The notes beneath the pieces were generated by a model. That model was given only the letters and a program-made list of their open reading frames with translations, did not search any database and was not told the origin of the DNA. From Solirubrobacterales bacterium (GTDB lineage: Bacteria; Actinomycetota; Thermoleophilia; Solirubrobacterales; 70-9), in assembly GCA_036257465.1 (NCBI GenBank), contig DATAFO010000036.1:13189-77188 (forward strand): a stretch of 64,000 bases of DNA, given 5' to 3'. Positions 20,617-61,781 of this stretch are shown here, one piece after another (the first letter of the stretch is position 1; each line of letters begins with the position of its first letter). Position numbers and translations under genes: made by a program.

Positions 20617-21207
20617 GTGAACCTCGGCCAGGATCGCGACGTGCGACTGAGCTTCACACGCAAGCTGCCCCTGACCCAAGCGGCGCTCGAGTTCGCCGAG
20701 GCCCGCCACGCGCGACAGCGCCGTCTGGTCGACGATGCCGCGTTCCTGATGCATCCAGTCGAGGTCGCGTCTCTGCTCGAGCGCGGGGCAGACCCGGATC
20801 ACGTGGTCGCGGCCGCGGTCTGCACGACGTGCTGGAAGCCACCGACGCCGAGCGCTCCGACCTCGAGCAGCGATTCGGCCCTGCGGTCAGCGATCTCGTT
20901 GTGGCGGTCAGCGACGACCCGGCAATTCCCAATGAGGAGGCGCGCAAGGACGGGCTTCGCGGCCGCGTGCAGCGCGAGAGCGGATACGCCCTCGCGGTCT
21001 ACGCCGCCGACAAGATCTCGAAAGGTGCGCGAGCTCCGCGATCTGATGGCGAGCGAGGCTCAGCCCGCCGAGGCCGAGAGCAAGCTCGCGCGCCATCGTA
21101 GGTCGCTGGCAATGCTCGACCGGGAGCTTCCCGGCAGCCGGCTGGTAGAGCTGCTGCGGTTCGAGCTCGAGGCGCTCGACGTGTTGCCGCCTCACGGCGA
21201 GCGCTGA
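20617..21207 (+). pseudogene. HD-domain phosphohydrolase (RelA/SpoT-type (p)ppGpp-hydrolase-like) with two compensating frameshifts
   Basis: Homology runs across three frames. First frame: LPLTQAALEFAEARHARQRR..FLMHPVEVASLL..VVAAAV. Second frame: LHDVLEATDAERSDLEQRFGPAVSDLVVAVSDD...YAADKISK. Back in the first frame: VRELRDL...LELLRFELEAL. The shifts are at 20820/20821 (one base missing before CTG CAC GAC) and in the aaa run at 21021-21023 (one extra base). Confidence 0.65.
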
Positions 21208-21234
21208 CCTCGCGCCCGGTCTCAGGTCGCCAGG

Positions 21235-21702
21235 CTATGCCGCCGCCCCGGCCTCACTCGGCTTCGAATCGCTCAGAAGCCGCGCGTCCGGTGGGATCAC
21301 CAGCACCGGATGGTGGGCGAGATGGAGCAGGCGTTGAGCGACGCTGCCCAGAACGACACCGAGGACGGATGAGTGGCCCCGCGTGCCGACGACGATCAGG
21401 TCGGCGTCCACCCGGTCGGCAATGTCCGCGATCCCGGACCCGGGGCCACCGGCGAAGATGGTCGCCTTCTCGACCCGGGTCTCGATCCCCTCCGACGAGA
21501 CCTCGGAAGCCTGGCGGTCGATCTCCGCCTGGATCTCGGGCTCATCCGGGTGGATCGGGCCGCCGCCCTTGCCGGCGATGTCCTGCTCGACGTGAGCGAT
21601 CACCAGCCTTGCGTCGTCCCGCCGGGCCAGCTCGACCGCGAAGTGCAACGCGCGCTTGGCGCCGTCCGATCCGTCCAGGCCGACGACGATCGTCTTGAAC
21701 AT
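21235..21702 (-). CDS. universal stress protein (UspA family)
   Basis: MFKTIVVGLDGSDGAKRAL and DADLIVVGTRGHSSVLGVVLGSVAQRLLHLAHHPVLVI (the G-2x-G-9x-G(S/T) ATP motif). It lies 14 nt downstream of paralogue C. Confidence 0.9.
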   Translation of the reverse strand: MFKTIVVGLDGSDGAKRALHFAVELARRDDARLVIAHVEQDIAGKGGGPIHPDEPEIQAEIDRQASEVSSEGIETRVEKATIFAGGPGSGIADIADRVDADLIVVGTRGHSSVLGVVLGSVAQRLLHLAHHPVLVIPPDARLLSDSKPSEAGAAA

Positions 21703-21716
21703 CTGGGACCTCCTCG

Positions 21717-23105: not shown

Positions 23106-23128
23106 CTCGACTCCGGCTCCCGGCGCGC

Positions 23129-23377
23129 TCAGAAGCCTCGGGTTTCGCGCAGGCGCTGCGCCTCGCGGAGGGACTCGTCATCCCCGCGGTCCCTCGCGGC
23201 GCGTCGGCTGCGAATCGCGTGCACGACGTAAGCGCAGGCGAGGACCGCGGCCGGGATCGTGAAGTAGAGCACCTCGCCGGGCGAGTAGACCCCCATGATC
23301 AGGCCGAAGACATAGAAGCCCAGATAGGCGAGAACGGCGAGCCACAGGATGGTCTCGAGTCGATCGTGCAGGTTCAT
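23129..23377 (-). CDS. small two-TM membrane protein, family copy 1
   Basis: MNLHDRLETILWLAVLAYLGFYVFGLIMG...IPAAVLACAYVVHAI...ESLREAQRLRETRGF. There is a purine-rich SD (gggagagggg) before ATG 23377. Homologous copies are at 42677-42798 and 54981-55166. It lies directly upstream of paralogue C. Confidence 0.6.
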   Translation of the reverse strand: MNLHDRLETILWLAVLAYLGFYVFGLIMGVYSPGEVLYFTIPAAVLACAYVVHAIRSRRAARDRGDDESLREAQRLRETRGF

Positions 23378-23556
23378 CAGCTTCCCCTCTCCCACATCTC
23401 ACCCCTCACGGTACGGTGGCAAGCAAGACCCGCCATCGGGAGAAAGTGCGAGACCAGCCTCCGTAGCCGCCACCGAGAAAGTGCGCCCAGTGGCCTCAGG
23501 CAGGCGGTCAGACATAGTTTCGAGACGGACAACGACCTCAATCGAGGGGAGCGCTC

Positions 23557-23718
23557 GTGACATTCCTCTGGTTCGTCATCTGGCTGATCGCCAACAACGT
23601 CGGTGGCAACGCGCCGCTGGAGTTCGATCCGGTCAACTTCTGGGCGGGGGCCCTGATCCTCGCGATCGCCATCGACCTCAACCGGCCCCGGCCGGAGCTG
23701 GCGCGAGAAAAGGTCTGA
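23557..23718 (+). CDS. hypothetical small membrane protein (53 aa)
   Basis: GTG start preceded by gagggga. VTFLWFVIWLIANNVGGNAPLEFDPVNFWAGALILAIAIDLNRPRPELAREKV has two hydrophobic helices. No family was recognised. Confidence 0.3.
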   Translation: MTFLWFVIWLIANNVGGNAPLEFDPVNFWAGALILAIAIDLNRPRPELAREKV

Positions 23719-23977
23719 GGGTTGAATCACCCACTCAGCTGCCGCGTCGGATCTTGGCGCGGGGACGTTCGGTGCCAACGCCTACCCGTCAGGGCTCTGC
23801 TCAGCCGACCGTCGCGCCGATTCCAGCAGGTCGCCAGAACTTGCCAACCAGGCCCAGGGCAATCTCCTCGCCAGGTCGTTCGCCGAGCAGAATCCAGCCG
23901 CCCTCGTACATCGGGAGCTGGAAATCCGACATCTCGAGCAGCCTACGCTCCCGCCTCGGCGGTTAGCCTGGGTCGCG

Positions 23978-24412
23978 ATGAAGCGTGAGGCCGCGCTCAC
24001 CGACCTCTCCCGCGACCATCATCAGGCGCTCTACCAGGCGATGCGAATGAAGCGGGCGGACGAAGCCGGCCTCAGCGAGGTCCGAGACGACGTGCTCTCG
24101 TTCTGGCGCGAGCACGGCGCGGTGCACTTCCGGATCGAGGAGGAGATCCTGCTCCCGGCCTACGCGACGGTCGGGGACCCCGCCGACGAGGCCGTCGTCC
24201 GGGTACTGGTTGATCACGTCTGGATCCGGGAGCGGATGGAGCGTCTCGAGTCGGGCGAGCTCGGCGTCCTCGAAGTGCACGAGCTCGGCGATCGGCTCGA
24301 GCGACACGTGCGCCACGAGGAGCGGGTGCTGTTTCCGCTGGTGGAGGACGCGCTCGACCCCGTGGCGCTCGCGGCTCTGGGCGAGCGAATCGCCGCCGCC
24401 GAAGCCCGCTAG
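23978..24412 (+). CDS. hemerythrin (HHE cation-binding) domain protein
   Basis: LSRDHHQAL..., HFRIEEEILLP and HVRHEERVLFPLVE give the His/Glu ligand pattern of hemerythrin-like di-iron domains. It lies 36 nt upstream of qNOR. Confidence 0.85.
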   Translation: MKREAALTDLSRDHHQALYQAMRMKRADEAGLSEVRDDVLSFWREHGAVHFRIEEEILLPAYATVGDPADEAVVRVLVDHVWIRERMERLESGELGVLEVHELGDRLERHVRHEERVLFPLVEDALDPVALAALGERIAAAEAR

Positions 24413-24448
24413 CAACCGGGCGGCTCATTTCATAGGATCGGCTCCGGG

Positions 24449-26761
24449 ATGCCGGAGGCGACCGAGCGTAGGGGACTCCTGGTTTCGAAGGCCTGGCTTC
24501 AGGTCTCGATCGTCGTCTTTCTGATCGGCTTCTTCGTCCTCGGGCTGCTCGCGTACCGCACCTACAGCGCCGACCCGCCGATCCCGGAGCGGGTGGTCGA
24601 TCCGGACGGGCAGACGCTGTTCACCGGCGACGACATCCGCGAGGGACAGCAAACGTTCCTCGACAACGGGCTCATGGAGTACGGCTCGATCTTCGGCCAC
24701 GGCGCCTATCTCGGCCCCGACTACACGTCCGACTACCTGCATCGCGCCGCGCAGTCGGTCGAGGGCCAGTACGGGGGAGCGGGCTCGGACCGGGCGCGCG
24801 AACAGACGATCGCCGACTTCCAGACGAACCGGTACGACTCCGACACCGAGACGCTCGAGTTCACCGCCGCTCAGGCGCGGGCGCATGGCGAGCTCGTCGA
24901 GCACTACAGCGAGTTCTTCGACCACCCAACGACCGAGTTCGGGCTGCGTCCCGACGCGATCTCCAACCCGGAGAAGGCCCGTGAGCTGACCGCGTTCTTC
25001 GGCTGGTCGGCCTGGGCGGCCTCAGCGCGCAGGCCGGGTCACAACTACTCCTACACCAACAACTGGCCGCCCGAGCCACTGGTCGACAACGGCCCGACCG
25101 CGAACGTGCTGCTGTGGAGCGTCGTCTCGCTCGTGGCGTTGCTGGGCGGGATCGGCCTGCTGTTCGCCGCCTTCGGGCGCTGGAACTTCCTCGGGTGGCA
25201 CGGACGCGAGCAGGCGACGCTCACCTTCCGGCGTCCGGGAGACGTCGCGCTCACCCCCGCCCAACGTGCGTGCGCCTGGTTCTTCCTCGTGATGGCCGCG
25301 CTGTTCTTGATCCAGACGATGGTGGGTGCCGCCTCGCAGCACTACCGAGCGGAGCTGGGCGACTTCTTCGGGATTGACCTCGCCGAGCTGCTCCCCTTCA
25401 ACCTCGCCCGCACGTTCCACGTCCAGCTGGCGATCTTCTTCGTCTCCACGTCCTTTCTCGCCGCTGGGATCTTCCTGGCGCCGATGATCGCTGGACGCGA
25501 GCCGCGCCGGCAGCACTGGCTTGCCTACGGCCTGCTCGCCGCGCTCGCGATCGTTGTCTTCGGCAGCCTGATCGGTGAGTTCGGCGGCATCCACGGCTGG
25601 TTCGGCGACGACGGCTCGATCTTCGGCCTCCAGGGCTTCGAATACCTGGACCTGGGCCGTTTCTGGCAGGTGCTGCTGGCCCTCGGGCTGTTCTTCTGGG
25701 CGGCGCTGATCTTCCGGGGTGTCCGCGGCCGTCTGGCCCGCGAGCACAAGGGCAACCTTCCGTGGCTGTTCTTCTTCGCCGCCCTGGCGATCCCGGCCTT
25801 TTACGCGGTCGGGCTGCTGGCGCGGTCGGGCGACAGCTTCACCGTCACCGACTTCTGGCGCTTCTGGGTCGTCCACCTCTGGGTCGAGGACTTCCTGGAG
25901 CTGTTCACGACCGTGATGGTCGCCTACATCTTCGTTCTGCTCGGAGTCGTGCGGGAGCGGGTGGCGCTCACCGTCGTCTTCCTGGACATCCTCCTGTACT
26001 CGGTTGGGGGAGTGATCGGGACCATGCATCACCTCTACTTCTCCGGAGAGCCCGCCGAGCACATGGCGCTCGGAGCGGTCTTCTCCGCCGCGGAGGTGAT
26101 CCCGCTGACGTTCCTCACGGTCGAGGCGTGGAGCTTCCTGCAGCTCGGCTCGCGGCAGGAGTCGCGCTCGGCGACTCCGTTCCCGCATCGCTGGGCAGTG
26201 ATGTTCCTGGTGGCGGTCGGGTTCTGGAACTTCCTCGGAGCCGGGATCTTCGGATTCTTGATCAACCTGCCGATCGTCTCCTACTACGAGATCGGAACGG
26301 CGCTGACCGCCAACCACGGACACGCCGCGATGATGGGGGTGTACGGAATGCTCGCGGTCGGGCTGGCGCTATTTTGCCTCCGATATCTGATCCCCGCCGA
26401 GCGCTGGCCGGACCGCGCGGCGAAGTGGAGCTTCTGGTCGCTCAACATCGGGCTCGCCTGGATGACCTTCGCGACCCTGTTCCCGCTGGGGCTGATCCAG
26501 CTGTACGAGTCAGTCGACGCAGGCTACTTCGAGGCGCGATCGCTCGAGTTCCTGACCAACGACACGAACTCGCTGATCGAGTGGATGCGATTCCCGGGCG
26601 ACATCGTGTTCATCGTCGGCGGCGTGGTGCCACTGCTCTACATCTGCTGGCTCGGCGTGCGCCATCGGGTGCGCCGCGAGACGCTCGAGGTGCCCGAGGA
26701 CATCCTGTTCACCGAGATTACGGCGCCGGCGCCCGAGGCGACCGCGGCGGTCGAGCGATGA
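24449..26761 (+). CDS. norZ: quinol-dependent nitric oxide reductase (qNOR, heme-copper oxidase superfamily)
   Basis: 770 aa. It has an N-terminal TM helix plus a periplasmic extension (GQQTFLDNGLMEYGSIFGHGAYLGPDYT). The 12-TM NorB core follows, with FWRFWVVHLWVEDFLELF, GTMHHLYF and NHGHAAMMGVYG histidine ligands. Confidence 0.93.
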   Translation: MPEATERRGLLVSKAWLQVSIVVFLIGFFVLGLLAYRTYSADPPIPERVVDPDGQTLFTGDDIREGQQTFLDNGLMEYGSIFGHGAYLGPDYTSDYLHRAAQSVEGQYGGAGSDRAREQTIADFQTNRYDSDTETLEFTAAQARAHGELVEHYSEFFDHPTTEFGLRPDAISNPEKARELTAFFGWSAWAASARRPGHNYSYTNNWPPEPLVDNGPTANVLLWSVVSLVALLGGIGLLFAAFGRWNFLGWHGREQATLTFRRPGDVALTPAQRACAWFFLVMAALFLIQTMVGAASQHYRAELGDFFGIDLAELLPFNLARTFHVQLAIFFVSTSFLAAGIFLAPMIAGREPRRQHWLAYGLLAALAIVVFGSLIGEFGGIHGWFGDDGSIFGLQGFEYLDLGRFWQVLLALGLFFWAALIFRGVRGRLAREHKGNLPWLFFFAALAIPAFYAVGLLARSGDSFTVTDFWRFWVVHLWVEDFLELFTTVMVAYIFVLLGVVRERVALTVVFLDILLYSVGGVIGTMHHLYFSGEPAEHMALGAVFSAAEVIPLTFLTVEAWSFLQLGSRQESRSATPFPHRWAVMFLVAVGFWNFLGAGIFGFLINLPIVSYYEIGTALTANHGHAAMMGVYGMLAVGLALFCLRYLIPAERWPDRAAKWSFWSLNIGLAWMTFATLFPLGLIQLYESVDAGYFEARSLEFLTNDTNSLIEWMRFPGDIVFIVGGVVPLLYICWLGVRHRVRRETLEVPEDILFTEITAPAPEATAAVER

Positions 26762-27339
26762 GCGGCGAGGCGTTGCTGATCTGCGCGTACGCGCTGTTCC
26801 TGCTCGCCGCCGCGCTGGGACTGGACCGCCTCGCGCGGCACTCACACCGCCGCAGCGAGCGCTACCGCACGGCCGGCTTTGAGTTCCGAGCGGACCTCGA
26901 CGTCTGGGAATGTCCGGAGGGTGAGTTCCTGCGCCGCATCGACACGGATCACGTCCGGCGCCTCGTGCGCTACCGCGCACGTGCCGCCGTCTGCAACGCG
27001 TGTCCCGCGAAGGCCGAGTGCACCGACTCCGACCACGGTCGCGAACTCGTGCACTCTCTTGATCCCTGGCCACATTCCGAGGCGGGCCGCTTTCACCGCG
27101 GCATCTGCGTCGTCCTGGCGGTGCTCGCCGCTCTGCTCGCGGCCGTTGGGCTTGCCCGCAGCTCCGGAGCCGCCGAGGTGCTAGCGCTTGCAACCACCCT
27201 CGCCATGTCGATCGCCTTGGCAAGCCGCCTGCTCGCCTCGTTCCGCCGCACGCCGAGCGGGTTCGCGGGTGCAGCCGTGCCCGATGCGATCGCGGCGATC
27301 CCCGAGGAGCGCTCGCCCGCGGCGCAGCTACGCCGGTAG
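26758..27339 (+). CDS. uncharacterised membrane protein with a Cys4 motif, translationally coupled to qNOR
   Basis: The ATG overlaps the qNOR stop (ATGA). The N-terminal TM is ALLICAYALFLLAAALGL. The soluble part is WECPEGEF...AAVCNACPAKAEC. Two C-terminal TMs follow. No family assigned. Confidence 0.6.
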   Translation: MSGEALLICAYALFLLAAALGLDRLARHSHRRSERYRTAGFEFRADLDVWECPEGEFLRRIDTDHVRRLVRYRARAAVCNACPAKAECTDSDHGRELVHSLDPWPHSEAGRFHRGICVVLAVLAALLAAVGLARSSGAAEVLALATTLAMSIALASRLLASFRRTPSGFAGAAVPDAIAAIPEERSPAAQLRR

Positions 27340-27440
27340 GGATAGCCCCAGCCAGACGATCACGGCCGTGGACCCAAAGACGAGGCGCCAGACCTCGTTC
27401 TCGCTCATCCGCTGGCAGCCTACGCCTCGCGCTCCAGGAC

Positions 27441-27482
27441 CATAGGATCGGCTGCGGGATGCCGGACGACACCGCGCCGTGA
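27441..27482 (+). promoter_or_regulatory. copy of the qNOR start region (26 nt, one mismatch) plus a 7-codon uORF ending in a GTGA overlap with the K+ channel start
   Basis: cataggatcggctGcgggatgccgga (27441-27466) versus cataggatcggctCcgggatgccgga (24431-24456). The uORF is atg ccg gac gac acc gcg ccg tga (27459-27482). Confidence 0.6.
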
Positions 27483-31469: not shown

Positions 31470-33008
31470 ATGGCCACCGTCGAGAAGACCACCTACGAGG
31501 CACCCGGACAGCCCGGGAGTCCCGTTGAGCTGAAGGAGCGCTACGACAACTTCATCGGCGGCCACTGGGTCGTCCCCTCGAGCGGCGAGTACCGCGACAA
31601 CCTCGCGCCCGCCACCGGAGAGGCGTTCTGCGAGGTGGCGAACTCGACCCCGGAGGACATCGAGCTCGCACTCGACGCCGCCCACGCCGCCAAGGACGGC
31701 TGGGGCGAGGCTTCGGTCACCGAGCGCTCGGCCGTGCTGAACCGCATGGCCGACGCGATCGAGGAGAACCTGGAGATGCTCGCTGTGGCGGAGAGCTGGG
31801 AGAACGGCAAGCCGGTGCGCGAGACGCTCGCCGCCGACCTGCCGCTGGCGATCGACCACTTGCGTTACTTCGCCGGCGTCATCCGCGGCGAGGAGGGGGC
31901 GATCTCCGAGCTCGACAAGGACACCGTGGCCTACCACTTCCGCGAGCCGCTCGGGGTCGTGGGGCAGATCATCCCGTTCAACTTCCCGCTCTTGATGGCG
32001 GCCTGGAAGATCGCCCCAGCCCTCGCGGCTGGCAACTGCACCGTCGTCAAGCCGGCCAGCCCGACGCCGTGGTCCATCCTCAAGCTCGCCGAGGTGGTCG
32101 AGGACGTCGTCCCGCCGGGAGTGCTGAACGTCGTCAACGGCCCTGGGGCGGAGATCGGCAAGGCGCTGGCCTCCAACAAGCGGATCGCCAAGATCGCCTT
32201 CACCGGCGAGACCGTGACCGGGCGGCTGATCATGTCCTACGCCGCCCAGAACATCATCCCTTCGACCACGGAGCTCGGAGGCAAGTCTCCGAACATCTTC
32301 TTCGAGGACGTGACGGCGACCGACGACGAGTTCCTCGACAAGGCGGTCGAGGGGCTGGTCCTATACGCCTTTAACAAAGGCGAGGTGTGCACCTGTCCCT
32401 CGCGGGCCCTGATCCAGGAGTCGATCTACGACGAGTTCATCGGTCGCGTGCTCGACCACATCAAGGCGATCAAGCAGGGCCACCCGCTCGATCGCGAAAC
32501 GATGATCGGCCCGCAGGTCTCACAGGCCCAGCTGGAGAAGATCGAGGGCTACGTCCAGATCGGCGTCGACGAGGGCGCGGAGGTGCTGATCGGCGGTCAG
32601 CGTCCTGATCTCAACGGAGAACTGGCCGGCGGCTACTACTTCGAGCCGACGGCGCTCAAGGGCTCGAACGACATGAGGGTCTTCCAGGAGGAGATCTTCG
32701 GCCCGGTCGTAGCGGTGACGACGTTCGCCGACGAGCGCGAGGCGCTCGAGATCGCGAACGACACCCTTTATGGTCTCGGCGCCGGTGTGTGGACCCGAGA
32801 CGGTTCTCGCGCCTACAGGATGGGCCGGGGGATCAAGGCCGGGCGAGTGTGGACCAACTGCTAACACCAGTATCCGGCCCACGCCGCGTTCGGCGGCTAC
32901 AAGGTCTCGGGAGTCGGCCGCGAGACGCACAAGATGATGCTCGACCACTACTCGCAGACCAAGTGCCTGCTGGTCAGCTACGACCCGAAGCCACTCGGCT
33001 TCTTCTGA
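31470..33008 (+). pseudogene. NAD-dependent aldehyde dehydrogenase interrupted by an in-frame TAA 48 codons before the normal end
   Basis: [20 protein letters not shown] and [11 protein letters not shown] (catalytic Cys) are present. Reading continues in the same frame across TAA 32862-32864: [53 protein letters not shown]. This is the conserved ALDH C-terminus, where Tyr (TAC) is expected at the stop. Confidence 0.85.
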
Positions 33009-37752: not shown

Positions 37753-38987
37753 TCAGATCGGCGCGATGCCCCGCTTGCGGGTCGCGAGGAAGTAGCGCTC
37801 GAACGCGACCTTCGCCCAGTGCGCCTGGGGGCCCCACATCACCCGCGGGTGCTGCGAGTCGCCCAACACGTGGTCGGCCTTGAAGATCACACCGCTGCTG
37901 CCCGCGTCGAGGATGCAGATCGCGGGGAGGTCGGAGAGCGGCTGCCGGCGGCGCTCGCCTCCCTGAAGGTCGGCGGCGACGTTTTGCGCCGCGACCTCCG
38001 CCATGAGCTCGCTCATCTGGCCGGTCTTGGGTGCACCGGCGGGAACCGGCGTCGCCTCGGGCGGCGCGGTGGCGACGTCGACGCCCGCGGCGTAGACGTC
38101 GGGGATCTCGGGATGGCTGAACTCGTCAGTGACGGGGATGAAGCCAAGCTCGTTCGCGAGCCCCTCGGCCCCCCGCACTACGTCGAGCCCAGTGAACGGG
38201 GGCACGATCATCGAGAAAGCAAACGGCAGCACCCGCCCGCCCTCGAGCTCGATCTCCGCCTCGCGGACCTCGCGGATGCCGCTGTTCGGGATCCCGTCGA
38301 TCCCCCAGCAGTCGAAGCACCGCCGGACCGCCCCGCTCGAGTCCCCTACGCCGCCAAGGCCGAAGTGCCCGAGGTACGGCTCCGCGGTGATGAAGGTCAC
38401 CGGTGCGACGTCCTCGAGCCCCGCCTTGCGAATCCGGTGGCGAACGTTGATCAGGAACTCGTACGAGGCGCCGAAGCAGGAGCCGCCCTCTGCAGTGCCG
38501 ATCACCACTGGCCCGGGGTCAGTGAGGAACCGCTGCCATTCGTCCCGCGCCGCGAGCGCGTGCTCGAGGTTGCACACCGACGCCGTGTGGCCGCCGTCCG
38601 GCCCCAGACCGCGGATCCGGTCGAACGCCAGGCGCGGCCGGTGGCGAGCAGTAGCCGGTCGTAGCCGATCTCCTCGGCGCGCGCGGTGAACACGGTGCGC
38701 GAGTCGAGGTCGAGCCGGATGGCGGCCTGGTTCAGGAAGCGGATTCCCTTGCGCTGGTACACCGGCGCCAGCGCGAACGTGATCTCCCCGGGCTCGCGCA
38801 GTCGGAGCGGGAGCCAGATCAGCGAGGGGATGAAGGTGAAGTTCGCGTGCGGATCAAGCACCACGACCTCGTGGTGCGGATCGAGCCGCCGGCGGAGCTC
38901 GAGGGCGGCCGTCAGCCCGGCGAAGCTCGAACCCACGACAACCGCTCGCTTGGCGCGGCTGGACGAACCGTCGAGCAGAGCCATCAT
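37753..38987 (-). pseudogene. sqr: sulfide:quinone oxidoreductase with a single 1-nt frameshift
   Basis: The N-terminal frame reads RAVVVGSSFAGLTAALEL...FIPSLIWLP...YDRLLLATG. It then switches frame to PRLAFDRIRGLGPDGGHTASVCNLEHA...GGSCFGASYEF...DVYAAGD...PKTGQM...AICILDAG. All three SQR-type Cys contexts are present. One C is missing at about 38636-38641, and the length of 1235 nt is not divisible by 3. Confidence 0.8.
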
Positions 38988-41758: not shown

Positions 41759-42670
41759 TCACCTCGCGAGTACCTTGGCCAACCCCTTCAGCCCGACCTC
41801 CATTCCGTTCCAGAAGAGCCCGGCATGGAACGGTCGACCACTGCTGAACCGCCACGGCACAGACATCCCGAGCATCCTCTTGCCCGCCCGCCACGCCTTC
41901 GAAGACCCGACCCGGTAGTCATCGCCAGCGTCGGGTCGAACCTCGACGGGTCGCGCCCGATCCCCGGTGATGCGCAACCCTGGGAAGGGAGTCGACGCGA
42001 TGTAGGGAGGGAAGGCGACGAGCAGGTCGGCGCAGATCGGCGCCGAGCTCCTCGGTACGCGGTCCGCGGCTGCCTTCGATCCCGTCAGCATGTGCATGCG
42101 CACGATCTCGTACAGCGGCCCCGCGCACTTGTTGTTCGGTGGCACCAGGAACAGCACGCGCCGCCGCTTGCCCAGCCCAGCCGCAGTCACGAGCTCGGCG
42201 AAAGCGCTTCGATCGAGCATGTCCTCGGGCGTCCAGGTGCTGATCGCGTACTGGTCGAGGCCGGAACGTCCTCGGCCTGCATGCCAGCGCCGGTCGCAAC
42301 CACAAGGAAGTCGTAATGCAGCGCACGGCCGTCGGCGACAACCCGGCGGGCATCTGGATCGATCTCGTGTGCGCGAGCGCCCACGAGCGCGATGCCTCTA
42401 CGTCCGACGATTTCGCGGGCGGCACCCGGAGCCGTTCAGGGTCGAGACCGAACGGCACGTAGATCGAGTTCGGCTTGAAGAGAAAGTGGTCTTGGTCGGA
42501 GACCAGCGTGATCTGCGCACCCTCGCCGGCAAGTCTGCGCAGGTTGAAGGCGGCCTCGAGTCCGCCGAAGCCCCCGCCAGGGACGACGACGCGGGCCGCG
42601 GCGCGACCACGCGAACAGGCGCCTCGCCGCTCACGCGACAGCCGACATGCGGAGCGCGCCTACCGGCCAT
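41759..42670 (-). pseudogene. decayed SQR-like flavoprotein gene (at least 3 frameshifts plus an internal deletion)
   Basis: Homology hops between frames. The segments are RVVVPGGGFGGLEAAFNL...FLFKPNSIYVPFGLDPERL, then REIVGRRGIALVGARAHEID...HYDFLVVATGAG, then GLDQYAISTWTPEDML...RRVLFLVPPNNKCAGPLYEIV. Shifts are near 42590-42610, 42420 and 42258-42264. About 70-80 residues are missing between the KCAGP motif and DLLVAFPP. Confidence 0.7.
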
Positions 42671-42676: not shown

Positions 42677-42798
42677 TTAGAACCCCCGGGTCTCGCGTAG
42701 GCGCTGGGACTCCGCATGATCAGGCCGTATACGTAGAAGCCGAGGTACGCAAGGATCGCGAGCCAGAACGCGGTCATGAGCCGCTCTCTGCGCCTCAT
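42677..42798 (-). pseudogene. remnant of the small two-TM protein family (copy 2)
   Basis: MRRRERLMTAFWLAILAYLGFYVYGLIM aligns with copy 1. The conserved C-terminus ESQRLRETRGF* is present but in another frame, so the second helix has been deleted. The ATG overlaps the WS/DGAT stop (ATGA). Confidence 0.5.
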
Positions 42799-44345: not shown

Positions 44346-45004
44346 TTAGGCCGCTTCGCGTCCGGCGCCCGCCACGCCCGAGGGTCGGCCTTCCGGACCC
44401 ACATCCGCCAGATGCAGCGCGACCAGGCTCGAGGCAGTGAGGGCGATGACGCCGTCGAGTCGGGGCTGGTTGAGCGCGAGGACGAAGGCGACCAGCAGGA
44501 TGCCAAGCAGGTTCACGAGCAGCTCACCGCGTTGTCTGTCGCGATACGAGCGGCGGGCACAGCCGGCGAGCGCACCGAGAATGCCCGAAACACCGACACC
44601 GCGTAAGAGTGGACGAGCTCCTGATCGAGGCCGCCGGCGAGCACGATCAGCGCGGCACCGGCGCCGAGGAAGGCCACAACGGCCCGGTAGGGGACGAATA
44701 AGCGGTCAGCGACCTGGTGGCCTGGAACCCGGCGAACTGCACGCCGTCACCGAGGCTCGCCCCGTCCCACCCCAGCCAGAAGGGTGGAGTCATCCGGGGG
44801 CAGTCCGATCCCCAGCTCGACTGCTAGCGCGGCACTTGCGCGGCACGGGAAGCGACACACGAGCTGGTGATGGGTGGCGGCGACGACGGCGATCGTGTCG
44901 ATCACCAGCGCCATCGTCGGGAAGAGGTCGGAGAGGCCGCCGTCCAGGCCGTTTAGCGCCGACTCGACGGCGTAGGCGACCGACGAGACCGGATCCGCCA
45001 TCAC
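44346..45004 (-). pseudogene. collapsed remnant of an APC-superfamily permease
   Basis: The N-terminal piece MADPVSSVAYAVESALNGL...FPTMALVIDTIAVVAATHHQLV resembles the start of actinobacterial APC permeases. Later TM-like pieces (FVPYRAVVAFLGAGAALIVLAGG, then in another frame GILGALAGC...LLVNLLGILLVAFVLAL) follow. About 220 codons remain of an expected 600 or more. Weakest pseudogene call. Confidence 0.4.
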
Positions 45005-45151
45005 CCTGAAGGCGAAGGCGACGAAGAGGTGAAAGCGCGCTGCCCCCGTCGCGGGGAAGTACTGAGAGATAACGGTAGTGCAAGCGGATTTCGAGCCGTC
45101 AACCCCCGCCTACGTTATTGGCGACAGCTGACGCCGCCCGAAGGAGCCAGA

Positions 45152-51964: not shown

Positions 51965-52381
51965 ATGGACTCAGGAGAGCTCGCATGGCTGATCGCGCCG
52001 GGGCTTGCGACTGGCGTCGGCGGGCTCGCGCTGTTGTTGTTGCGCCGCCCGACCGAGCGCGGCCTCGGCACTGACGATCCACGGGGCTTCGCGGCTGCGG
52101 CTCCGTTGGTCGAGGCCCGCGCGAGCCGGCGCAGCGCCGCCTGGGTTGCCGCGCTGCCGCGGGCCGTTGAGCCGCCCGCAGCGCTGCTGGCTTTCGCCTC
52201 CTTCGAGCTCGCGGAGTCGCTGCTACCGGTCGGCCTCGCGTTCGCGGCGGGCGCGATGCTCTACGTGATCGTCGACGAGCCTGCCCCCGAGAGCCACGGG
52301 CACGGCCACGAGCGCGACGCCTGGCTGGCGCTGGTCGGTGGCTTCGCCCTGATGATGGCGCTGGACAACGCCTTCGGCTAG
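51965..52381 (+). pseudogene. ZIP-family metal transporter remnant (central part deleted)
   Basis: The N-terminal helix LIAPGLATGVGGLALLLLRR and the C-terminal GLAFAAGAMLYVIVDE.APESHGHGHER...LVGGFALMMALD match ZupT-like proteins. Only 138 aa remain of about 250, and the HNxPEG region is absent. Confidence 0.5.
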
Positions 52382-54859: not shown

Positions 54860-54883
54860 TAGGGGGTCACTAGGGGGTCACTA
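54860..54883. repeat. perfect tandem repeat (tagggggtcac)x2 followed by ta
   Basis: Copies at 54860-54870 and 54871-54881 are identical. Same intergenic region. Confidence 0.7.
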
Positions 54884-54980
54884 CGGAGTGTCCTGCGTGG
54901 GATCCGCCGATGCCGTCGCGTTCGCCGCGACCTAGCGTCTGCGGCCCGATGTTCCGCCGTCGCCCGAGGGAGCAATCAAG

Positions 54981-55166
54981 ATGGGCCTCACCGATCGCCT
55001 CATGACCGGCGTCTGGCTGGCGGGCTTCGTCTATCTCGGCTTCTACGTCTACGAGCTAGTCGTCGGTGCCGGGACGGCGGGCGAGATGGCGGGCCTCACG
55101 GTGGTGGCGGGCATCGTCGTGGTGATGTACGCCGTTCACCTCGCTCGGGGTGCCGGCGCGACCTGA
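54981..55166 (+). CDS. small two-TM membrane protein, family copy 3
   Basis: MGLTDRLMTGVWLAGFVYLGFYVYELVVG...LTVVAGIVVVMYAVHLA aligns with copies 1 and 2 (DRL..T..WLA..YLGFYV). It lacks the charged RLRETRGF tail. Confidence 0.55.
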   Translation: MGLTDRLMTGVWLAGFVYLGFYVYELVVGAGTAGEMAGLTVVAGIVVVMYAVHLARGAGAT

Positions 55167-55192
55167 TTCGGCCCGGTTGACGAACATGGCGC

Positions 55193-55510: not shown

Positions 55511-56425
55511 ATGGGCCTCGGCTACGACGGACAGCTCTACATCCTCGCCTTCGACCACCGCGGGTCGTTCATCAAGCGGTTTGGGATCGAGGGCGAGCCG
55601 AAGCCGGAAGACGTCAAACGCATCGCCGACGGCAAGCACCTGATCTTCGAGGGACTCGAGGTGGCGCTCGGGCGTGGCGCCGACCCGTCCGTGACGGGTG
55701 CCCTGGTGGACGAGCAGTTCGGCGGCCCGACGCAGGTTCCCGAGCAGGCCAAGGCGAGGGGGATCCGGCTTGCGATGCCGGTCGAAAAGAGCGGCCAGGA
55801 CGAATTCGACTTCGAGTACGGCGACGAGTTCGGCGACCACATCGAGCGCTACGACCCGGATTTCTCCAAGGTCCTCGTCCGTTACAACCCCGACGGCGAC
55901 GCGGACATGAACCGGCGGCAGGCGCAGCGACTGCGGCGCCTGTCCGACTGGCTGCACGAGCGCGATCGCAAGTTCCTCTTCGAGCTGCTGGTTCCGGCCG
56001 AGGAGTCGCAGCTGGAACAGGTCGACGGGGATTCCGACCGCTACGACGCCGAGCTGCGCCCGGAGCTGATGCGTCGGGCGATCGCCGAGCTTCAGGACGC
56101 CGGCGTGGAGCCTGACATCTGGAAGATCGAGGGCGTGGACACCCGCGCCGACTGCGAGCTGATCGCAGCCCAGTGCCGGGCCGGCGGTCGCGACGGAGTC
56201 GTCTGCGTCGTTCTCGGCCGCGGGGCGGACAACGACAAGGTCGATCACTGGCTGCGTCAAGGGGCGCCAACAGAGGGCTACGTCGGCTTTGCAATCGGCC
56301 GTTCGATCTGGGGCGACCCGCTCGCGGGGTTCATCGCCGGCGATCTGAGCCGTGAGGACGCCGCGGGTCAGGCTGCCGACAACTACCTGCGTTTCGTCGA
56401 GGTCTACGAGTCCGCTCGCTCCTAG
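55511..56425 (+). CDS. DUF2090 (IolC C-terminal-like / 2-deoxy-5-keto-gluconate-6-P aldolase-like) protein
   Basis: LYILAFDHRGSF, ALVDEQFG, VLVRYNPDGD, FLFELLVP, PDIWKIEG, and VGFAIGRSIW match the DUF2090 pattern seen fused to IolC kinases. Confidence 0.7.
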   Translation: MGLGYDGQLYILAFDHRGSFIKRFGIEGEPKPEDVKRIADGKHLIFEGLEVALGRGADPSVTGALVDEQFGGPTQVPEQAKARGIRLAMPVEKSGQDEFDFEYGDEFGDHIERYDPDFSKVLVRYNPDGDADMNRRQAQRLRRLSDWLHERDRKFLFELLVPAEESQLEQVDGDSDRYDAELRPELMRRAIAELQDAGVEPDIWKIEGVDTRADCELIAAQCRAGGRDGVVCVVLGRGADNDKVDHWLRQGAPTEGYVGFAIGRSIWGDPLAGFIAGDLSREDAAGQAADNYLRFVEVYESARS

Positions 56426-56602
56426 CGGGACGACCAGCGCGAGGACGCCGGTGAGCCGCTGGACTCCGTAGTGCCCGCGGACGAACTCCGGGGGGCGATG
56501 CGGATGGCCGAACAGGCGACCGGTGGGAGGGTGGGTGATGAGGCCGCGGTTCGACCGTCATGGTCGAACTCAGCGGGTGAACCGACCCAAAGGAGTGGAG
56601 CT

Positions 56603-56802
56603 ATGTCCGTGGCAAAGGTGATCGAGATCACGTCGTCCTCGAGCGAGAGCTTCGAGGACGCGATCGTCAAGGGCATCGAGAAGGCGTCCGAGACCGTGCG
56701 AGACATCCGGGGCGCCTGGGTGAAGGAGCAGATGGTCCGGTCGAGGGCGGCGAGATCGCCTAATACCGCACCGATCTGAAGGTCACCTTCGTGCTCGAGT
56801 GA
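56603..56802 (+). pseudogene. dodecin with a 1-nt deletion and an in-frame TAA
   Basis: The SD aaaggag precedes the ATG. MSVAKVIEITSSSSESFEDAIVKGIEKASETVRDIRGAWVKEQMVR is followed by a frame change (one g lost at 56738-56740). The shifted frame reads VEGGEIA*YRTDLKVTFVLE*, with TAA at 56761-56763 where Glu is expected. Confidence 0.7.
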
Positions 56803-57542
56803 CAAGCCCGGAGTTGGGCTGGCGAAGAGGGGCGGGTCGTCTACGAGAACATCCGCAAGTTCGTCACCTGCATCTTCGCCCACGCAACCCCCGAGGTGGT
56901 GCCGTTTCTGATCTTTGCCCTCTCCGGAGGTGCGGTGCCGCTGCCGCTGACGGCGCTGCAGATCCTGGCCATCGACCTCGGCACCGAGACACTGCCGGCC
57001 CTCGCGCTCGGCCGCGAGCCGGCTGAACCCGGAATCCTCGATCGCCCCCGCGCCCGCGCAAGTCCGGAATCATCGACCGCCCGATGCTGACCCGGGCGTG
57101 GCTCTGGCTCGGCTTGCTGGAGGCGGCCCTCGTAACGGGCGGCTTCTTCTTCGTGCTTGCCAACGCCGGCTGGTCGCCCGGAGACGAAACCGGTGCCGGG
57201 GCGCTTCTTCACGCCGATTACCTGGCGGCGACGACCATGACGTTCGCGGGGATCACTGCCTGTCAGGTCGGGACGGCCTTCGCGGCCCGGACATCACGGG
57301 CTTCCCTGCGCGAGATCGGCGTCTTCTCAAATCCCCTCCTGCTCTGGGGCATCCTCTTCGAGCTGGTGTTCGCCGCCGCGATCGTCTACGTCCCGCCGCT
57401 GCAGGACTTGTTCGCGACCGCTTCGCTCGGTGCCCCTGAGCTTGCGCTCCTGGCGACCTTCCCGTTCATCGTCTGGGGTTCCGATGAGCTACGGCGCTGG
57501 TGGCTTCGCCGCCGAGAGGAATCCGAGACGGGCCGCGGATAG
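56803..57542 (+). pseudogene. C-terminal third of a P-type (P2, Ca/Mg-type) ATPase; 5' two-thirds absent, plus a frameshift
   Basis: It begins immediately after the dodecin stop with [35 protein letters not shown]...[25 protein letters not shown] (TM5-6). It then reads [17 protein letters not shown] only if one C is added to the C5 run at 57045-57049. TM7-10 follow to the stop. There is no N-terminal, phosphorylation or nucleotide-binding domain. Confidence 0.75.
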
Positions 57543-57568
57543 CTCCGTAGTGGCCCCGGAGGAAGTTG

Positions 57569-57817
57569 GTGGGCCGCCGCGGATGGCATAGCACGGCCTC
57601 CGTGCCAGGCTCCGGGGCGATGCCTGTAAGCCGTTGCCCCCACTGCGGAGCCCGCAACCTCGCCATTACGAGCTGGGCGAACGTGGACGTCTGCGCCGAT
57701 TGCGGCCGGCCCCTGGCGACGCGTGATCTTCGAGAGATCGAAGCGGAGGTTCGTCAGCAGCTCTATGGGCGCGCCGATCGCTCCCCGCCCACGCGCACGA
57801 AGCCCGACAGTGAGTAG
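57569..57817 (+). CDS. small zinc-ribbon protein (hypothetical)
   Basis: CPHCGARN-x14-CADCGRP. ggagg sits 6 nt before GTG 57569, and ATG 57620 is an alternative start. It overlaps the next gene by 8 nt. Confidence 0.4.
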   Translation: MGRRGWHSTASVPGSGAMPVSRCPHCGARNLAITSWANVDVCADCGRPLATRDLREIEAEVRQQLYGRADRSPPTRTKPDSE

Positions 57818-59216
57818 TCGCCTCCAGTCCAGGCAGCGCGCAAGGGGATCTCGATTCAGCGATCGCCGGGACGCGGGCCGGGCGCTTGCTCGCGAGCTTG
57901 AGAGCTTCGCCGAGCGCGATCCCGTGGTCGTCGCCCTACCGCGCGGCGGGGTGCCGGTGGGCTACGAGGTGGCGAAGGCACTCGACGCGCCGCTCGACAT
58001 CGGCCTGGTGCGCAAGCTGGGAGCGCCGATGCAACCCGAGCTCGGGATTGGAGCGCTGGGCGAGGGCGGGCGGGCGGTGCTCGACACGGCCGCTGTGAAC
58101 AAGCTCCGGATCTCTCGCGAGGAGCTCGCCGAGATCGTCGAGCGCGAACAACGCGAGCTCGAGCGCCGCCGACGTCGCTACCGTCCCACGCACCCGCCGA
58201 TCGACGTCAACCGGCGGACGGTCATCCTCGTCGACGACGGGCTCGCGACCGGCGTCACCGCCGTCGCCGCCGCCCGCGTGCTGCGGGCACAGGGCGCTCG
58301 CGAGGTGATCCTCGCCGTTCCGACCTGCCCTCGGCACGTCGGTGTCGAGCTGCGAGCGGAGTTCGACGGCTTCGTGTGCCTGACCTCGCCCGACCCGTTC
58401 TACGGCGTCGGAGGCGCATACGTGGACTTCACCCAGACGACGGACCGCGAGGTGCTGGAGTTGCTCGCAGCAGCAAACGGGCGAGCCGGCGAGGCCGCGG
58501 GCTCGGTGCGGAGCGGCGATGACGCCGCCGCCATCACCGAGACGGACCTTGCGATTCCCGCCCGCGACGGCCTCGAGCTCAAGGGAACGCTGCGGGTGCC
58601 CGCGGACCCGGTCGGGCTCGTCATCTTCGTCCACGGCAGTGGCTCGAGTCGGCTGAGCCCGCGCAACCGCGCCGTCGCCGAGCGCCTCAACGTGGAGGGT
58701 CTGGCGACTCTCCTCTTCGACCTTCTCACCGAAGACGAGGCTCGGACCCGCGCCAACGTCTTCGACGTCGACCTGCTCGCCGACCGTCTCGTTGGCGCGC
58801 ACCGCTGGGTGGAGGGAGCCCCGGAGGTCGGGGGCCTGCCGGTCGGCCTCTTCGGCGCGTCGACCGGCGCCGCGGCTGCTCTTCGTGCGGCGGCGGAGCC
58901 AGGGGAGCGTGTTGCCGCGGTCGCCTCCCGGGGCGGTCGTCCCGATCTCGCCGCGTCGGCGCTTCCACACGTCACCGCGCCGACACTGCTCATCGTCGGC
59001 GGCGAGGATCGCACGGTGCTGGAGCTCAACCGGCAGGCCGCGCGCATGCTCGGCGGACAGCACGAGGTTGCCGTCGTCCCGGGGGCCGGGCACCTGTTCG
59101 AGGAGCCCGGGGCGCTCGAGCACGTGTCGCGCCTGGCGGCCACATGGTTCACGGAGCACTTCGCGAGCGCGTCGACGAAGCACCGACAGACGACTGCCGC
59201 CGGCGAAGGGCGATGA
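57810..59216 (+). CDS. phosphoribosyltransferase-domain / dienelactone-hydrolase-type alpha/beta hydrolase fusion
   Basis: The PRTase-like part has [12 protein letters not shown]...[12 protein letters not shown] and [13 protein letters not shown]. The hydrolase part has [30 protein letters not shown] and LIVGGEDR...GAGHLFEE. The start is provisional (GTG 57810). Confidence 0.8.
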
Positions 59217-60558
59217 CCGTTCGGGCGTTGCGCGGACGCCGCGAGTTGTTGCTCGCCGCCATCCGCGACGAGGCCATGCCGTTGACAGGGGCGCCGGGAG
59301 ACCATGACGGCCTCCTCGAGCTGATCGGCGACGCGCGCCTCGTGCTGATCGGAGAGGCGTCGCACGGAACGCACGAGTTCTACCGCCAGCGGGCGGTGAT
59401 CACCAAGCGGTTGATCGAGGAGCACGGCTTCGACGCCGTTGCCGTGGAGGCCGACTGGCCCGATGCCCACAGGGTCACCCGCTTCATACACGGGGCCGAC
59501 GACGACCCGGACGCAGAGGCCGCTCTGCGCGGCTTTCAGCGCTTCCCGACCTGGATGTGGCGCAACGCGGACGTGCTCGACTTCGTCGGATGGCTGCGCG
59601 CTCGAGCGGAGGAGGGGAGCCGGCCCGTCGGCTTCTTCGGCCTCGACCTCTACAGCCTCTACCGCTCGATCGAGTCGGTGATCGACTACCTGGAGCGAAT
59701 CGATCCCGACGCGGCGCGGCGAGCCCGGCTGCGCTATGCGTGCTTCGACCCCTTCGAGGAGAGCAGCGCTACGGACAGGCGGTGGCGATGGGGCTGTCCG
59801 ACTCGTGTCGGCGGGAGGTCCTGCAGCAGCTGATCGACCTCCAGCGGGCCGGCGACACCTATCTGCGCCGCGACGGGATCGCCGCCGAGGACGAGCTGTT
59901 CTATGCCGAGCAGAACGCTCGCCTGGTGGTCGAAGCCGAGTGTTACTACCGCTCGATGTTCGAAGGGGCTGCGGCGTCGTGGAACCTGCGCGACCGCCAC
60001 ATGGCGGAGACGCTCGATCAGCTGCTCGCCCACCTCGACCGGCACGGCGGCGACTCGCGGATCGTCGTCTGGGCTCACAACTCTCACATCGGGGACGCGC
60101 GGCGCACCGAGATGTCGCGACGTGGCGAGCTCAACCTGGGCCAATTCGTCCGCGAGCGCCACGGCGCAGACGCATTCCTGATCGGGTTCACAACGTACGC
60201 CGGAACGGTCAGCGCGGCCTCGGATTGGGACGGTCCGGTCGAGCGCAAGCGCGTGCGCCCGGCGCTTCCGCACAGCTACGAGGAGCTCTTCCACGCGGTT
60301 GCGCTTGGAGACTTCATGCTCAACCTCCGCTCGGTGGGCCCGGCGCCAGCTGCGCTTCACGGGCCCCTGCTCGAACGCGCGATCGGGGTCATCTACCGCC
60401 CGGAGACGGAGCGGCAGAGCCACTACCTGCACGCCAACCTCGCGGAGCAGTTCGATGCGGTCCTGCACTTCGACCACACGCGCGCGGTCGAACCGCTCGA
60501 GCCCACCGCAGGCTGGGTGCGCGGCGAGCCCCCCGAGACTTACCCGACAGCGCTGTGA
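59213..60558 (+). pseudogene. erythromycin-esterase-family protein with a 1-nt frameshift
   Basis: ATGA overlap with the previous gene. [31 protein letters not shown] and FGLDLYSL...ACFDPFEE are followed by a frame switch at about 59759-59763. The second frame reads [11 protein letters not shown]...VVWAHNSHIGD...GVIYRPE. The length of 1346 nt is not divisible by 3. Confidence 0.8.
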
Positions 60559-60583
60559 ACGCGGGTCGCCGGAGATCGCGGCC

Positions 60584-61781
60584 ATGACGTCGAGCTTCCG
60601 GCTCGGTCGGCTGGCCGGGGTCGAGATCGGCATCCACTGGAGCTGGGCGATGATCTTCGCCCTCATCGTCTGGTCGCTTGCCGACGCCGTGTTCCCGGAG
60701 ACGAATCCGGGCCTGGGCGACGGCACGTACGTCGGGATGGCCCTGGTCGCCGTGCTTGCGTTCTTCGCGTCGCTGCTCCTACATGAGCTTGGTCACGCGA
60801 CCCGCGCCACCAAGGAGGGAATGGAGATCGAGGGAATCACCCTGTGGTTGTTCGGCGGCGTCGCCCGCTTTCGTGGCTTGTTTCCCTCCGCCGGAGCGGA
60901 GTTTCGGATCGCGATCGCCGGGCCGATCGTCTCCCTGCTGATCGGGGCTGTCACCCTCGCGGTCGCGCTGCTGCTGCCACTGCCCAACGCCGTCGACGGC
61001 GTCCTCTTCTGGCTCGGCTACATCAATCTCGCCGTCTTGGTCTTCAACTTGATGCCCGCGCTTCCTCTTGGACGGCGGCCGGATGTTGCGGTCGGTCCTC
61101 TGGGCGCGCAAAGGCGACTTCCTCGAGGCGACTCGCACGGCCGCGCTCATCGCGCGCGGCTTCGCGCAGTTCCTGATCGCCTTCGGTGCCCTCACCGTGG
61201 TGCTCGGCGGGGCCATCGGGGGCCTGTGGCTGATCTTCATCGGCTGGTTCCTGCTGGCGGCGGCAGAGGCCGAGCGCGTGGGTGCGGAGACGCACGAGGC
61301 CCTGAGCGGTATCCACGTCGAAGACGTGATGGTCAAAAGCCCCGTTTGCGTCGATCCGGAGCTGGCGCTCGATCAGTTCATGGAGCAGTTCTTCTTTCCC
61401 CACCGACACGTCGCCTATCCGGTTCTGGACGACGGCCGACCCGTGGGCCTGATCTCGTTTCGCTCGGTGCTCGCCCTGCCGCCCGAGTCGTGGTCGGGCC
61501 GGCGAGTCAGAGACGTCATGGTCCCCCTGGAGCGGCTCCCGGTCCTCAGCCCCAGCACCCCCTTGGAGCCTGCGGTGGCGCAGCTCAGTCGCACGGAGTC
61601 GAACCGGGCGCTGGTCCTCGATGGCGACGAGATGGCCGGCCTGCTTTCGATCACCGATGCCACGCGCGTGATCGAGGCCCGAAGGGCGAGCCGGATCGAA
61701 GCGGCAAACGGACAGCCGGCAGCCGGCCCTGAGGACGGGCCCGCTCCCGCTCCCCACCGCGAGCCGGTGACGTCTCGATGA
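60584..61781 (+). pseudogene. M50 (site-2 protease family) membrane metalloprotease with a C-terminal CBS pair, 1-nt frameshift
   Basis: LLHELGHA (HExxH) and FNLMPALPL are followed by one extra base at about 61067-61071. The second frame reads DGGRMLRSVLW (the LDG motif), then CBS repeats VEDVMVKSP...PVLDDGRPVGLISFRSV and VRDVMVP...LVLDGDEMAGLLSITD. The length is 1198 nt. Confidence 0.8.

Follow-up and report, generated by a model that had tools for sequence, protein, structure and literature searches.

Dense frameshifts in a high-GC metagenomic assembly raise the question of whether genes have decayed or the assembly has failed. This question is posed by a 64,000 nt stretch of contig DATAFO010000036.1 (positions 13,189-77,188 of the forward strand; assembly GCA_036257465.1, Solirubrobacterales), hereafter the window. 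An initial annotation, made from the sequence alone, had listed twelve lesions between window positions 20617 and 61781 and attributed them to relaxed selection on accessory stress genes. All twelve were found at, or a few bases from, the positions it gave, and a further remnant absent from its list lies at 23801-23962, such that the interval holds 13 pseudogenes among approximately 29 intact genes. The lesions are real and are shared or polymorphic among wild strains, and the pseudogenes evolve neutrally. Very probably the interval comprises 13 genuine pseudogenes at mixed stages of decay, with relaxed selection acting on accessory genes and the process still under way. It is a well-evidenced case of a phenomenon already described rather than a system of a new kind, and it demonstrates that dense frameshifts in high-GC metagenomic sequence can be real biology.

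Location and nature of the lesions

Lesions were sought independently of homology with a codon log-likelihood model, trained on 11 long open reading frames (ORFs) of the window and used to find the best-scoring segment of each stop-to-stop ORF. Gapless same-strand frame switches were observed at 20820, 21020, 38631, 44525, 57042-57069, 59761 and 61048-61062, in agreement with the coordinates of the initial annotation, and none in the first 20 kb. Each lesion was mended by one base, or the stop read through, and the product scanned against Pfam; blastx searches were run against the ORFs of 80 related loci, and tblastn searches with orthologues, piecewise for the remnants. Contigs and related loci are referred to by L numbers. 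The following genes are interrupted by frameshifts or nonsense codons:

20617-21207, plus strand: HD_4 / (p)ppGpp-hydrolase-like pseudogene; -1 at 20820/20821 and +1 (an extra A) at 21021-21023
31470-33008, plus strand: aldehyde dehydrogenase (ALDH); TAC to TAA at 32862-32864, polymorphic
37753-38987, minus strand: SQR-type Pyr_redox_2 pseudogene; -1 at approximately 38637
56603-56802, plus strand: dodecin; -1 at 56738 and GAA to TAA at 56761-56763, three alleles
59213-60558, plus strand: erythromycin-esterase-like pseudogene; -1 near 59760
60584-61781, plus strand: M50 protease with a CBS pair; +1 at 61068/61069

The others are remnants left by larger deletions:

23801-23962, minus strand: conserved-protein remnant of approximately 40 codons; source protein approximately 200 aa, no Pfam family
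41759-42670, minus strand: SQR-like (Pyr_redox_2) remnant; at least two frameshifts, most of the C-terminal half lost
42677-42798, minus strand: remnant of a small transmembrane (small-TM) protein, paralogue of 23129-23377 and 54981-55166; internal deletion and frame change
44373-45040, minus strand: APC-superfamily permease remnant; deletion of approximately 180 codons, in-frame stop, smaller deletions and a frameshift near 44588
51965-52381, plus strand: ZIP transporter; approximately 108 central codons deleted, leaving an in-frame ORF of 138 aa
55193-55510, plus strand: universal stress protein (USP) remnant; mid-domain deletion and in-frame fusion to the intact DUF2090 gene at 55511-56425
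56803-57542, plus strand: P-type cation ATPase reduced to its C-terminal quarter; one C lost (-1) from the run at 57045-57049

For the interrupted genes, homology continues across each break. The HD ORF is still open (196 aa), with 67 codons, including the HD motif, out of frame between the two switches that the codon scan places at 20820 and 21020. The repaired protein contains HD_4 and is colinear over 93-99% of its length with upwards of 1000 members of PF13328, each about 196 aa long, at no more than 79% identity, and the unrepaired product matches these proteins everywhere except in the middle 67 residues. In ALDH, the Aldedh domain extends past the proposed nonsense codon to profile position 459 of 461 on readthrough, and the gene is 82.7% identical to its orthologue in blastx, straight across the stop; the ancestral codon is TAC, as in L014. 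The base predicted to be missing from the SQR gene at 38636-38641 is lost at about 38637 according to the codon scan, the local sequence, Pfam and the population contigs, and the repaired protein has Pyr_redox_2 over residues 14-310. Both lesions proposed for dodecin are present, and the Dodecin domain is complete (1-64 of 64) across the mended sites. The repaired junction of the esterase is crossed by Erythro_esteras (1-358 of 358); in blastx, the L050 orthologue is matched in two frames, over residues 4-182 by one half and over 187-449 by the other. The M50 gene, for which an intact sister allele exists, yields Peptidase_M50 plus CBS domains once repaired, and its unrepaired blastx matches likewise lie in two frames.

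The deletion remnants can be assigned to their sources with varying completeness. The remnant at 23.8 kb has 79% identity over 39 aa to residues 101-139 of a 221-aa ORF in L054. To residues 138-187 of a 269-aa ORF in L041 its identity is 65% over 52 aa, rising to 93% in a 31-aa core; a Pfam scan returned no match for this family. The SQR-like remnant retains residues 15-81, 90-131 and 134-173 of orthologues of approximately 420 aa (tblastn, L037 and L059), distributed over three frames. In the small-TM remnant, the 28 N-terminal residues and the ancestral C-terminus, 'ESQRLRETRGF*', occupy different frames. The assignment of the APC permease, whose fragments gave no match in Pfam alone, is borne out by homologues of approximately 410 aa, one named an amino acid permease and another carrying PF13520, and the gene is more decayed than first described: piecewise tblastn shows that it keeps residues 3-67 and the last 73, with approximately 180 residues after position 67 deleted. 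Both ends of the ZIP remnant align to the 251-aa orthologue in L038 (residues ~17-36 and ~145-251), as expected of a transporter lacking its centre, with the Pfam Zip match covering only 218-322 of 323 at a score under the cut-off. For the USP, Pfam and alignment recover just the end of the domain (profile positions 101-141 of 141, the last ~43 residues); a short upstream stretch resembles the N-terminus as judged by eye, with no alignment. In blastx, two frames of the ATPase remnant match an 888-aa ATPase in L106, one over residues 652-726 and the other over 726-873; the remnant contains Cation_ATPase_C in full (1-175 of 175) and no other P-type ATPase domain, in agreement with the 5' truncation reported for it.

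The local changes are the loss of C in GTC(C)TG at 20820, AA to AAA at 21021-21023, CCC to CC at 38637, C6 to C5 at 57045-57049, a base lost in GAGGAG at 59760 and a base gained in CTTGGAC at 61068. The initial annotation had placed the single-nucleotide indels in short homopolymers; this description does not hold, as the sites are mostly runs of 1-3 bases and not true homopolymers, the sole longer run being that in the ATPase.

The clustering of these genes is significant: 13 of the 42 genes in 20.6-61.8 kb are lesioned, against none of 19 in 1-20.6 kb (Fisher p = 0.006), or none of 30 when approximately 11 intact genes within 8 kb to the right of the window are counted (p = 4e-4). The affected loci merit a pseudogene flag in place of the two to three short hypothetical proteins that automatic calls in related contigs give for each. 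The pseudogenes probably yield no functional product.

Recurrence of the lesions in independent assemblies

The nearest genomes in the GTDB species-level set are Solirubrobacterales and Thermoleophilia metagenome-assembled genomes (MAGs) of soil and environment type, with identities of 57-68% for a glycosyltransferase query and up to approximately 82% for phosphoenolpyruvate (PEP) synthase and ALDH. The host is thus an uncultured actinobacterium to which no sequenced member of that set is close; as relatives are only 57-68% identical, dating of the lesions by synteny was dropped in favour of contigs from within the population. Certain related MAG loci themselves have split ORFs, namely the PRT-hydrolase in L036 (14687-16080) and the hemerythrin and NO-reductase starts in L041 (7955-8378); these may be pseudogenes or assembly errors, making these relatives imperfect references for reading frame.

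A simple route to proof in such a case is comparison between independent assemblies of the same population. Exact-protein look-ups identified 36 contigs that together cover the window from 1 to 64000, drawn from two pipelines: at least nine JGI metagenomes (among them 3300037444, 3300037456, 3300037523, 3300037536, 3300037630, 3300037632, 3300086399 and 3300086401) and three SRA runs assembled by Logan (SRR12681507, SRR12681509 and SRR12681510). The literature, searched by sample and run accession, gave no match. Identity to the window is 97.5% for L028 and 99.3-100% for the other contigs, and all differ from it by scattered single nucleotide polymorphisms (SNPs), which implies that strain, read set and assembler vary among them.

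Wherever other contigs span a lesion, it recurs in them, with base G57066 the exception. The HD frameshifts are present in all covering contigs (both in L009-L011, while L012 covers the second only), as are the -1 in the esterase (four of four), the 138-aa form of ZIP (six of six) and the -1 in the ATPase (four of four). The +1 in the M50 gene is found in seven contigs and is lacking in L028. The 410-aa USP-DUF2090 fusion occurs in every complete copy (L005, L006, L019, L021 and L022), that in L008 being cut at the contig end. G57066, the only base unique to the window, is colinear with the orthologue and hence ancestral. Finding the same lesions in different samples and from two assemblers effectively excludes artefact. 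It upholds the earlier view that assembly error could not explain the large deletions, the 5' truncation and the nonsense codons, and speaks against that alternative for the 1-nt indels too, for which the initial annotation had allowed it; that the lesions are genuine in the DNA of the organism can be regarded as effectively settled.

Segregating alleles in the population

The population is near-clonal, with approximately 99.9% identity over at least nine samples, and several lesions are polymorphic within it. In L014 and L009 the ALDH codon is TAC and the gene is whole, at 512 aa; the window, L001 and L002 have TAA, with a 464-aa product. Dodecin is intact in L005, carries the -1 together with GAA to TAA in the window, L019 and L022, and has a +1 at 56780 in L006 and L021. 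The base that the SQR gene lacks in the window is retained in L016 and L017, the latter having instead a 1-nt deletion at 38429. Hence the SQR gene carries a second, independent frameshift allele, and dodecin two different inactivating alleles. The M50 gene is uninterrupted in L028, the lineage with 97.5% identity, which belongs to samples 3300086399 and 3300086401.

Genes that are already broken have acquired further damage in other strains. The ATPase remnant has 1-nt deletions at 57066 (L019-L022) and 56941 (L020-L022), the esterase has extra 1-nt and 3-nt deletions in L024 and L022, the APC remnant has 15-nt and 1-nt deletions, and a T has been gained at 42773 in the small-TM remnant of L015. 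The interval forms a single 41-kb natural experiment in gene loss, in which ancient remnants, recently fixed frameshifts and knock-outs still segregating against intact alleles lie side by side. The order, tempo and any fitness effect of this decay are measurable from read-level allele frequencies in existing samples.

The SQR pseudogene is also unusual in its SNP density, which at 9.7 per kb is about three times that of its neighbours, with many G<->C transversions clustered in positions 487-837 of the coding sequence. This excess could stem from an older inactivation or from recombination between diverged haplotypes.

Disruption is also observed outside the interval. A zinc alcohol dehydrogenase gene to the left of the window is intact (353 aa) in L109 (13723-14784) and has the same +1 at codon 147 in L110 (13723-14785) and L111 (5346-6408); it is a further segregating pseudogene. 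L111, a divergent lineage from sample 3300086401, additionally has 1-nt insertions at 620, 655 and 887, one of which disrupts a DUF2630 gene (671-1009) that is intact in the window. The original proposal that decay is restricted to accessory stress genes in the interval therefore stands as far as relaxed selection is concerned, and fails in its strict form on the frameshifted dehydrogenase beyond the left end of the window.

Evidence for relaxed selection

If the disrupted genes are no longer maintained, the changes separating strains should differ in kind between them and the intact genes. Distinct indel events number 12 in pseudogenes (~9.5 kb) and five in intact genes (~50 kb), even though pseudogenes make up 16% of the coverage-weighted coding length (binomial p = 8e-7). 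Four of the five events in intact genes are compensating pairs in L028, and the other is that disrupting DUF2630 in L111. The SNPs also differ: the three pseudogenes whose frame can be reconstructed and that carry non-lesion SNPs have 15 nonsynonymous changes and 3 synonymous ones, against 48 nonsynonymous and 91 synonymous in intact genes (Fisher p = 1.4e-4). Across the three codon positions the counts are 8, 5 and 5 in pseudogenes and 25, 22 and 92 in intact genes (p = 0.003); the SQR gene, with 12 SNPs, has them evenly over codon positions. Both the concentration of indels and the 15:3 against 48:91 contrast bear out the relaxed selection proposed for this interval. Of the changes between the window and the intact M50 allele of L028, 9 are synonymous and 2 nonsynonymous, which implies that this gene was constrained until shortly before its frameshift. 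Taken together, the lesioned genes of the interval exhibit homology across their breaks, disruption in several assemblies and loss of purifying selection, as expected of pseudogenes.

Explanations for the decay

The favoured account of these observations begins with ordinary mutation striking accessory genes whose loss would meet no counter-selection in this population. The mutations would be mostly 1-nt deletions of G or C, with two G:C to T:A nonsense changes and larger deletions. Once broken, the genes would drift, gaining more frameshifts, amino-acid-changing SNPs and progressive deletions, while their neighbours would remain under purifying selection. The underlying cause is probably that selection has relaxed on functions related to stress, transport and redox, and for some of these an intact paralogue lies close by. 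Several findings weigh against this account. The SNP density in pseudogenes, 3.6 per kb, is barely above the 3.2 per kb of intact genes, and so it is the kind of change, 18 SNPs and the indels that carry the neutral signal. The ZIP (138 aa), HD (196 aa) and USP-DUF2090 (410 aa) ORFs are open, such that residual or new functions are possible. Furthermore, approximately 78 kb of this genome has been seen in total, from which the decay could be genome-wide rather than specific to function.

Two explanations would deny that the genes are dead, and each is extremely improbable. Sequencing or assembly artefacts in the window might be suspected from single-base indels in short runs of identical bases and from G57066; yet identical indels and stops appear in other samples and assemblers against a background of SNP differences elsewhere, the runs comprise no more than 1-3 bases, a single C5 excepted, G57066 follows the orthologue and frame-breaking indels are nearly missing from intact genes. 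Frameshifts that are decoded by programmed ribosomal frameshifting or recoding, or that act as phase-variable switches, have just as negligible a claim. The on/off length polymorphism at the lesion sites of the SQR, dodecin and M50 genes is what such switching would produce; the sites, however, differ in context and have neither a slippery motif nor a long repeat tract in common, the frames of orthologues and sister strains are single and unbroken, the broken genes gain more frameshifts and nonsynonymous changes, and large deletions cannot be decoded. The interval does not resemble a phase-variable contingency locus, in that runs are of 1-3 bases and C5/C6 occurs only in the already truncated ATPase remnant. 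Nor do the differing contexts and uninterrupted orthologue frames conform to a programmed ribosomal frameshift.

A more serious competitor, albeit a doubtful one, is genome-wide reduction or drift following a bottleneck or niche shift, in which case the cluster would mark where dispensable genes sit and no function would be singled out. The near-clonality of the population, the polymorphic frameshift in the dehydrogenase just outside the window, the disruption of DUF2630 in L111 and the unrelated nature of the lesioned functions (transporters, protease, dehydrogenases, esterase) are all consistent with it. Against it, intact genes are under clear purifying selection (48:91), and there is no lesion in the 19 genes of the left block or the approximately 11 genes within 8 kb to the right of the window. 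Genome-wide decay and relaxed selection on accessory genes overlap, and are not mutually exclusive. It is unlikely that positively selected, adaptive gene loss explains the recurrent knock-outs, despite two independent inactivating haplotypes of dodecin (the -1 with the nonsense codon, and the separate +1) and two independent frameshifts of the SQR gene within sequences ~99.9% identical. For dodecin (198 bp), approximately one neutral event is expected and three are observed, which is not significant (Poisson p ~ 0.07); intact alleles persist, and the extra lesions in the dead ATPase, esterase and APC genes show that neutral accumulation alone suffices. An extension of this idea, that a near-clonal Thermoleophilia population is selectively dismantling a hypoxia- or dormancy-type stress set because knock-outs became advantageous after a recent habitat shift, seems similarly improbable; were it true, an uncultured soil-type actinobacterium would have been caught in the course of adaptive gene loss.

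Comparison with known systems

Within the Actinobacteria, pseudogenes have accumulated during the reductive evolution of Mycobacterium leprae and M. ulcerans. The present interval is similar to these in its high local fraction of dead genes (13/42), in its frameshifts, nonsense codons and internal deletions of mixed age, and in the sparing of core metabolism. It differs in that the kin of the host are soil- and environment-type Solirubrobacterales MAGs, in the 69% GC content of the window and in the 78 kb examined; moreover, several lesions are polymorphic in a wild population, whereas decay in M. leprae and M. ulcerans is fixed and ancient. Segregation of loss-of-function alleles in natural populations is a feature of host-adapted Salmonella and Shigella lineages. 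As in these, intact and broken alleles coexist here in strains more than 99% identical, and the same gene has been struck independently more than once; unlike in these, the alleles are known from metagenome contigs of an uncultured lineage, and there is no sign of adaptive loss.

The gene families of the interval prompt a further comparison. CBS proteins and a WS/DGAT acyltransferase in the window parallel hrp1 and tgs1 of M. tuberculosis. The top PDB matches of the CBS protein are, however, generic CBS-domain proteins of other organisms, none labelled M. tuberculosis, and it was not retained as hrp1-like. The DosR/DevR dormancy regulon of M. tuberculosis includes universal stress proteins and the P-type cation ATPase ctpF, and also lists the zinc metalloprotease Rv2625c, the phosphoribosyltransferase-domain protein Rv0571c and the GH65 glycosyl hydrolase otsB1 (PMC7753917). 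Several of these families are present in the window, namely USPs, a P-type ATPase, a metalloprotease, a phosphoribosyltransferase-domain protein and GH65. The DosR box GGGACNNNNGTCCC, allowing at most one mismatch, has two matches in the window against 6.8 expected, none of them intergenic, and neither Pfam scans nor precomputed gene annotations revealed a DosR/DosS-type regulator in the window. With no enrichment of the box and no regulator pair, a DosR-type dormancy regulon was rejected, and the resemblance is one of gene families only.

A de novo search of intergenic k-mers returned the 10-mer CACTACGGAG, which occurs exactly three times within 3 kb, always intergenically: at 54879-54888 (plus strand), 56464-56473 (minus strand) and 57543-57552 (minus strand). 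A copy with one mismatch is found at 57641-57650 (plus strand). The copies surround the small-TM/USP, dodecin and ATPase-remnant/PRT-hydrolase genes, and two of them share a further GCCATCCGC approximately 25-30 nt away. As CACTACGGAG is not enriched in 1.4 Mb of related loci, no regulon claim was built on it.

Gene content of the interval

The gene families of the interval, lesioned and intact alike, cover a range of functions. Those concerned with stress and sensing are universal stress proteins, CBS proteins and hemerythrin; those of redox and respiration are a quinol NO reductase, SQR-type flavoproteins and dodecin. Acyl and carbon metabolism is represented by an acetyltransferase/ADP-forming acyl-CoA synthetase, WS/DGAT acyltransferase, PEP synthase, formate dehydrogenase and a TreT-like glycosyltransferase, and transport by a formate channel, the P-type ATPase and the ZIP transporter. 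The M50/CBS protease, PRT-hydrolase and erythromycin-esterase-like protein complete the set. 'Stress genes' is a fair label for these families, and co-regulation could not be demonstrated.

The small-TM family, which has no Pfam model, has three paralogues in the window, at 23129-23377, 42677-42798 (the decayed copy) and 54981-55166. Each lies directly upstream of a Pyr_redox_2 or USP gene, an arrangement that suggests that small-TM, flavoprotein and USP genes may form a duplicated module. With these copies in the window, some of the decayed genes have intact paralogues close by.

GC content is 69% throughout the window, with a range of 0.67-0.72 in the composition scan. Scans of the window for tRNA genes and against Rfam found no match, and hence there is neither an island boundary nor a riboswitch. 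A weak partial match to DDE_Tnp_1_6 (transposase C-terminal) was observed in the ORF at 26758-27339 (193 aa), downstream of the NO reductase gene. This ORF also has the highest SNP density among genes counted as intact, 13.7 per kb, and may be a further remnant or a fast-evolving membrane protein. A horizontally acquired genomic island was considered and rejected on the uniform GC content and the lack of tRNA genes, this partial match being the sole trace of mobility.

The intact block

The genes to the left of the interval, used as the comparison above, are as follows:

1451-20158, first part: glk (ROK), zwf, gnd, pgl, rpiA, HAD, tkt, tal, pgi, HAD
1451-20158, remainder: two Pyr_redox_2 genes, MgtE, beta-PGM-like HAD, GH65, LLM oxidoreductase

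Of 10 ORFs from 204 to 16171 with full-length Pfam domains, eight belong to the 1.5-20 kb block, and the other genes of the block are free of frame switches in the codon scan, in accordance with the earlier statement that it reads through cleanly. No indels occur in the block genes among the population contigs L009-L011 and L109-L116; the divergent L111 differs outside these genes.

One irregularity within the block concerns the start of pgl. There is no ATG, GTG or TTG before 5059, although the Glucosamine_iso domain begins at approximately 4942, and the sole plausible start in the region 4895-5060 is a CTG at 4900, which overlaps the stop codon of gnd (CTGA). The region is identical in all eight population contigs, and automatic calls yield a shortened product of 173 aa. 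This could reflect a non-canonical coupled start, or the loss of a start codon in a housekeeping gene.

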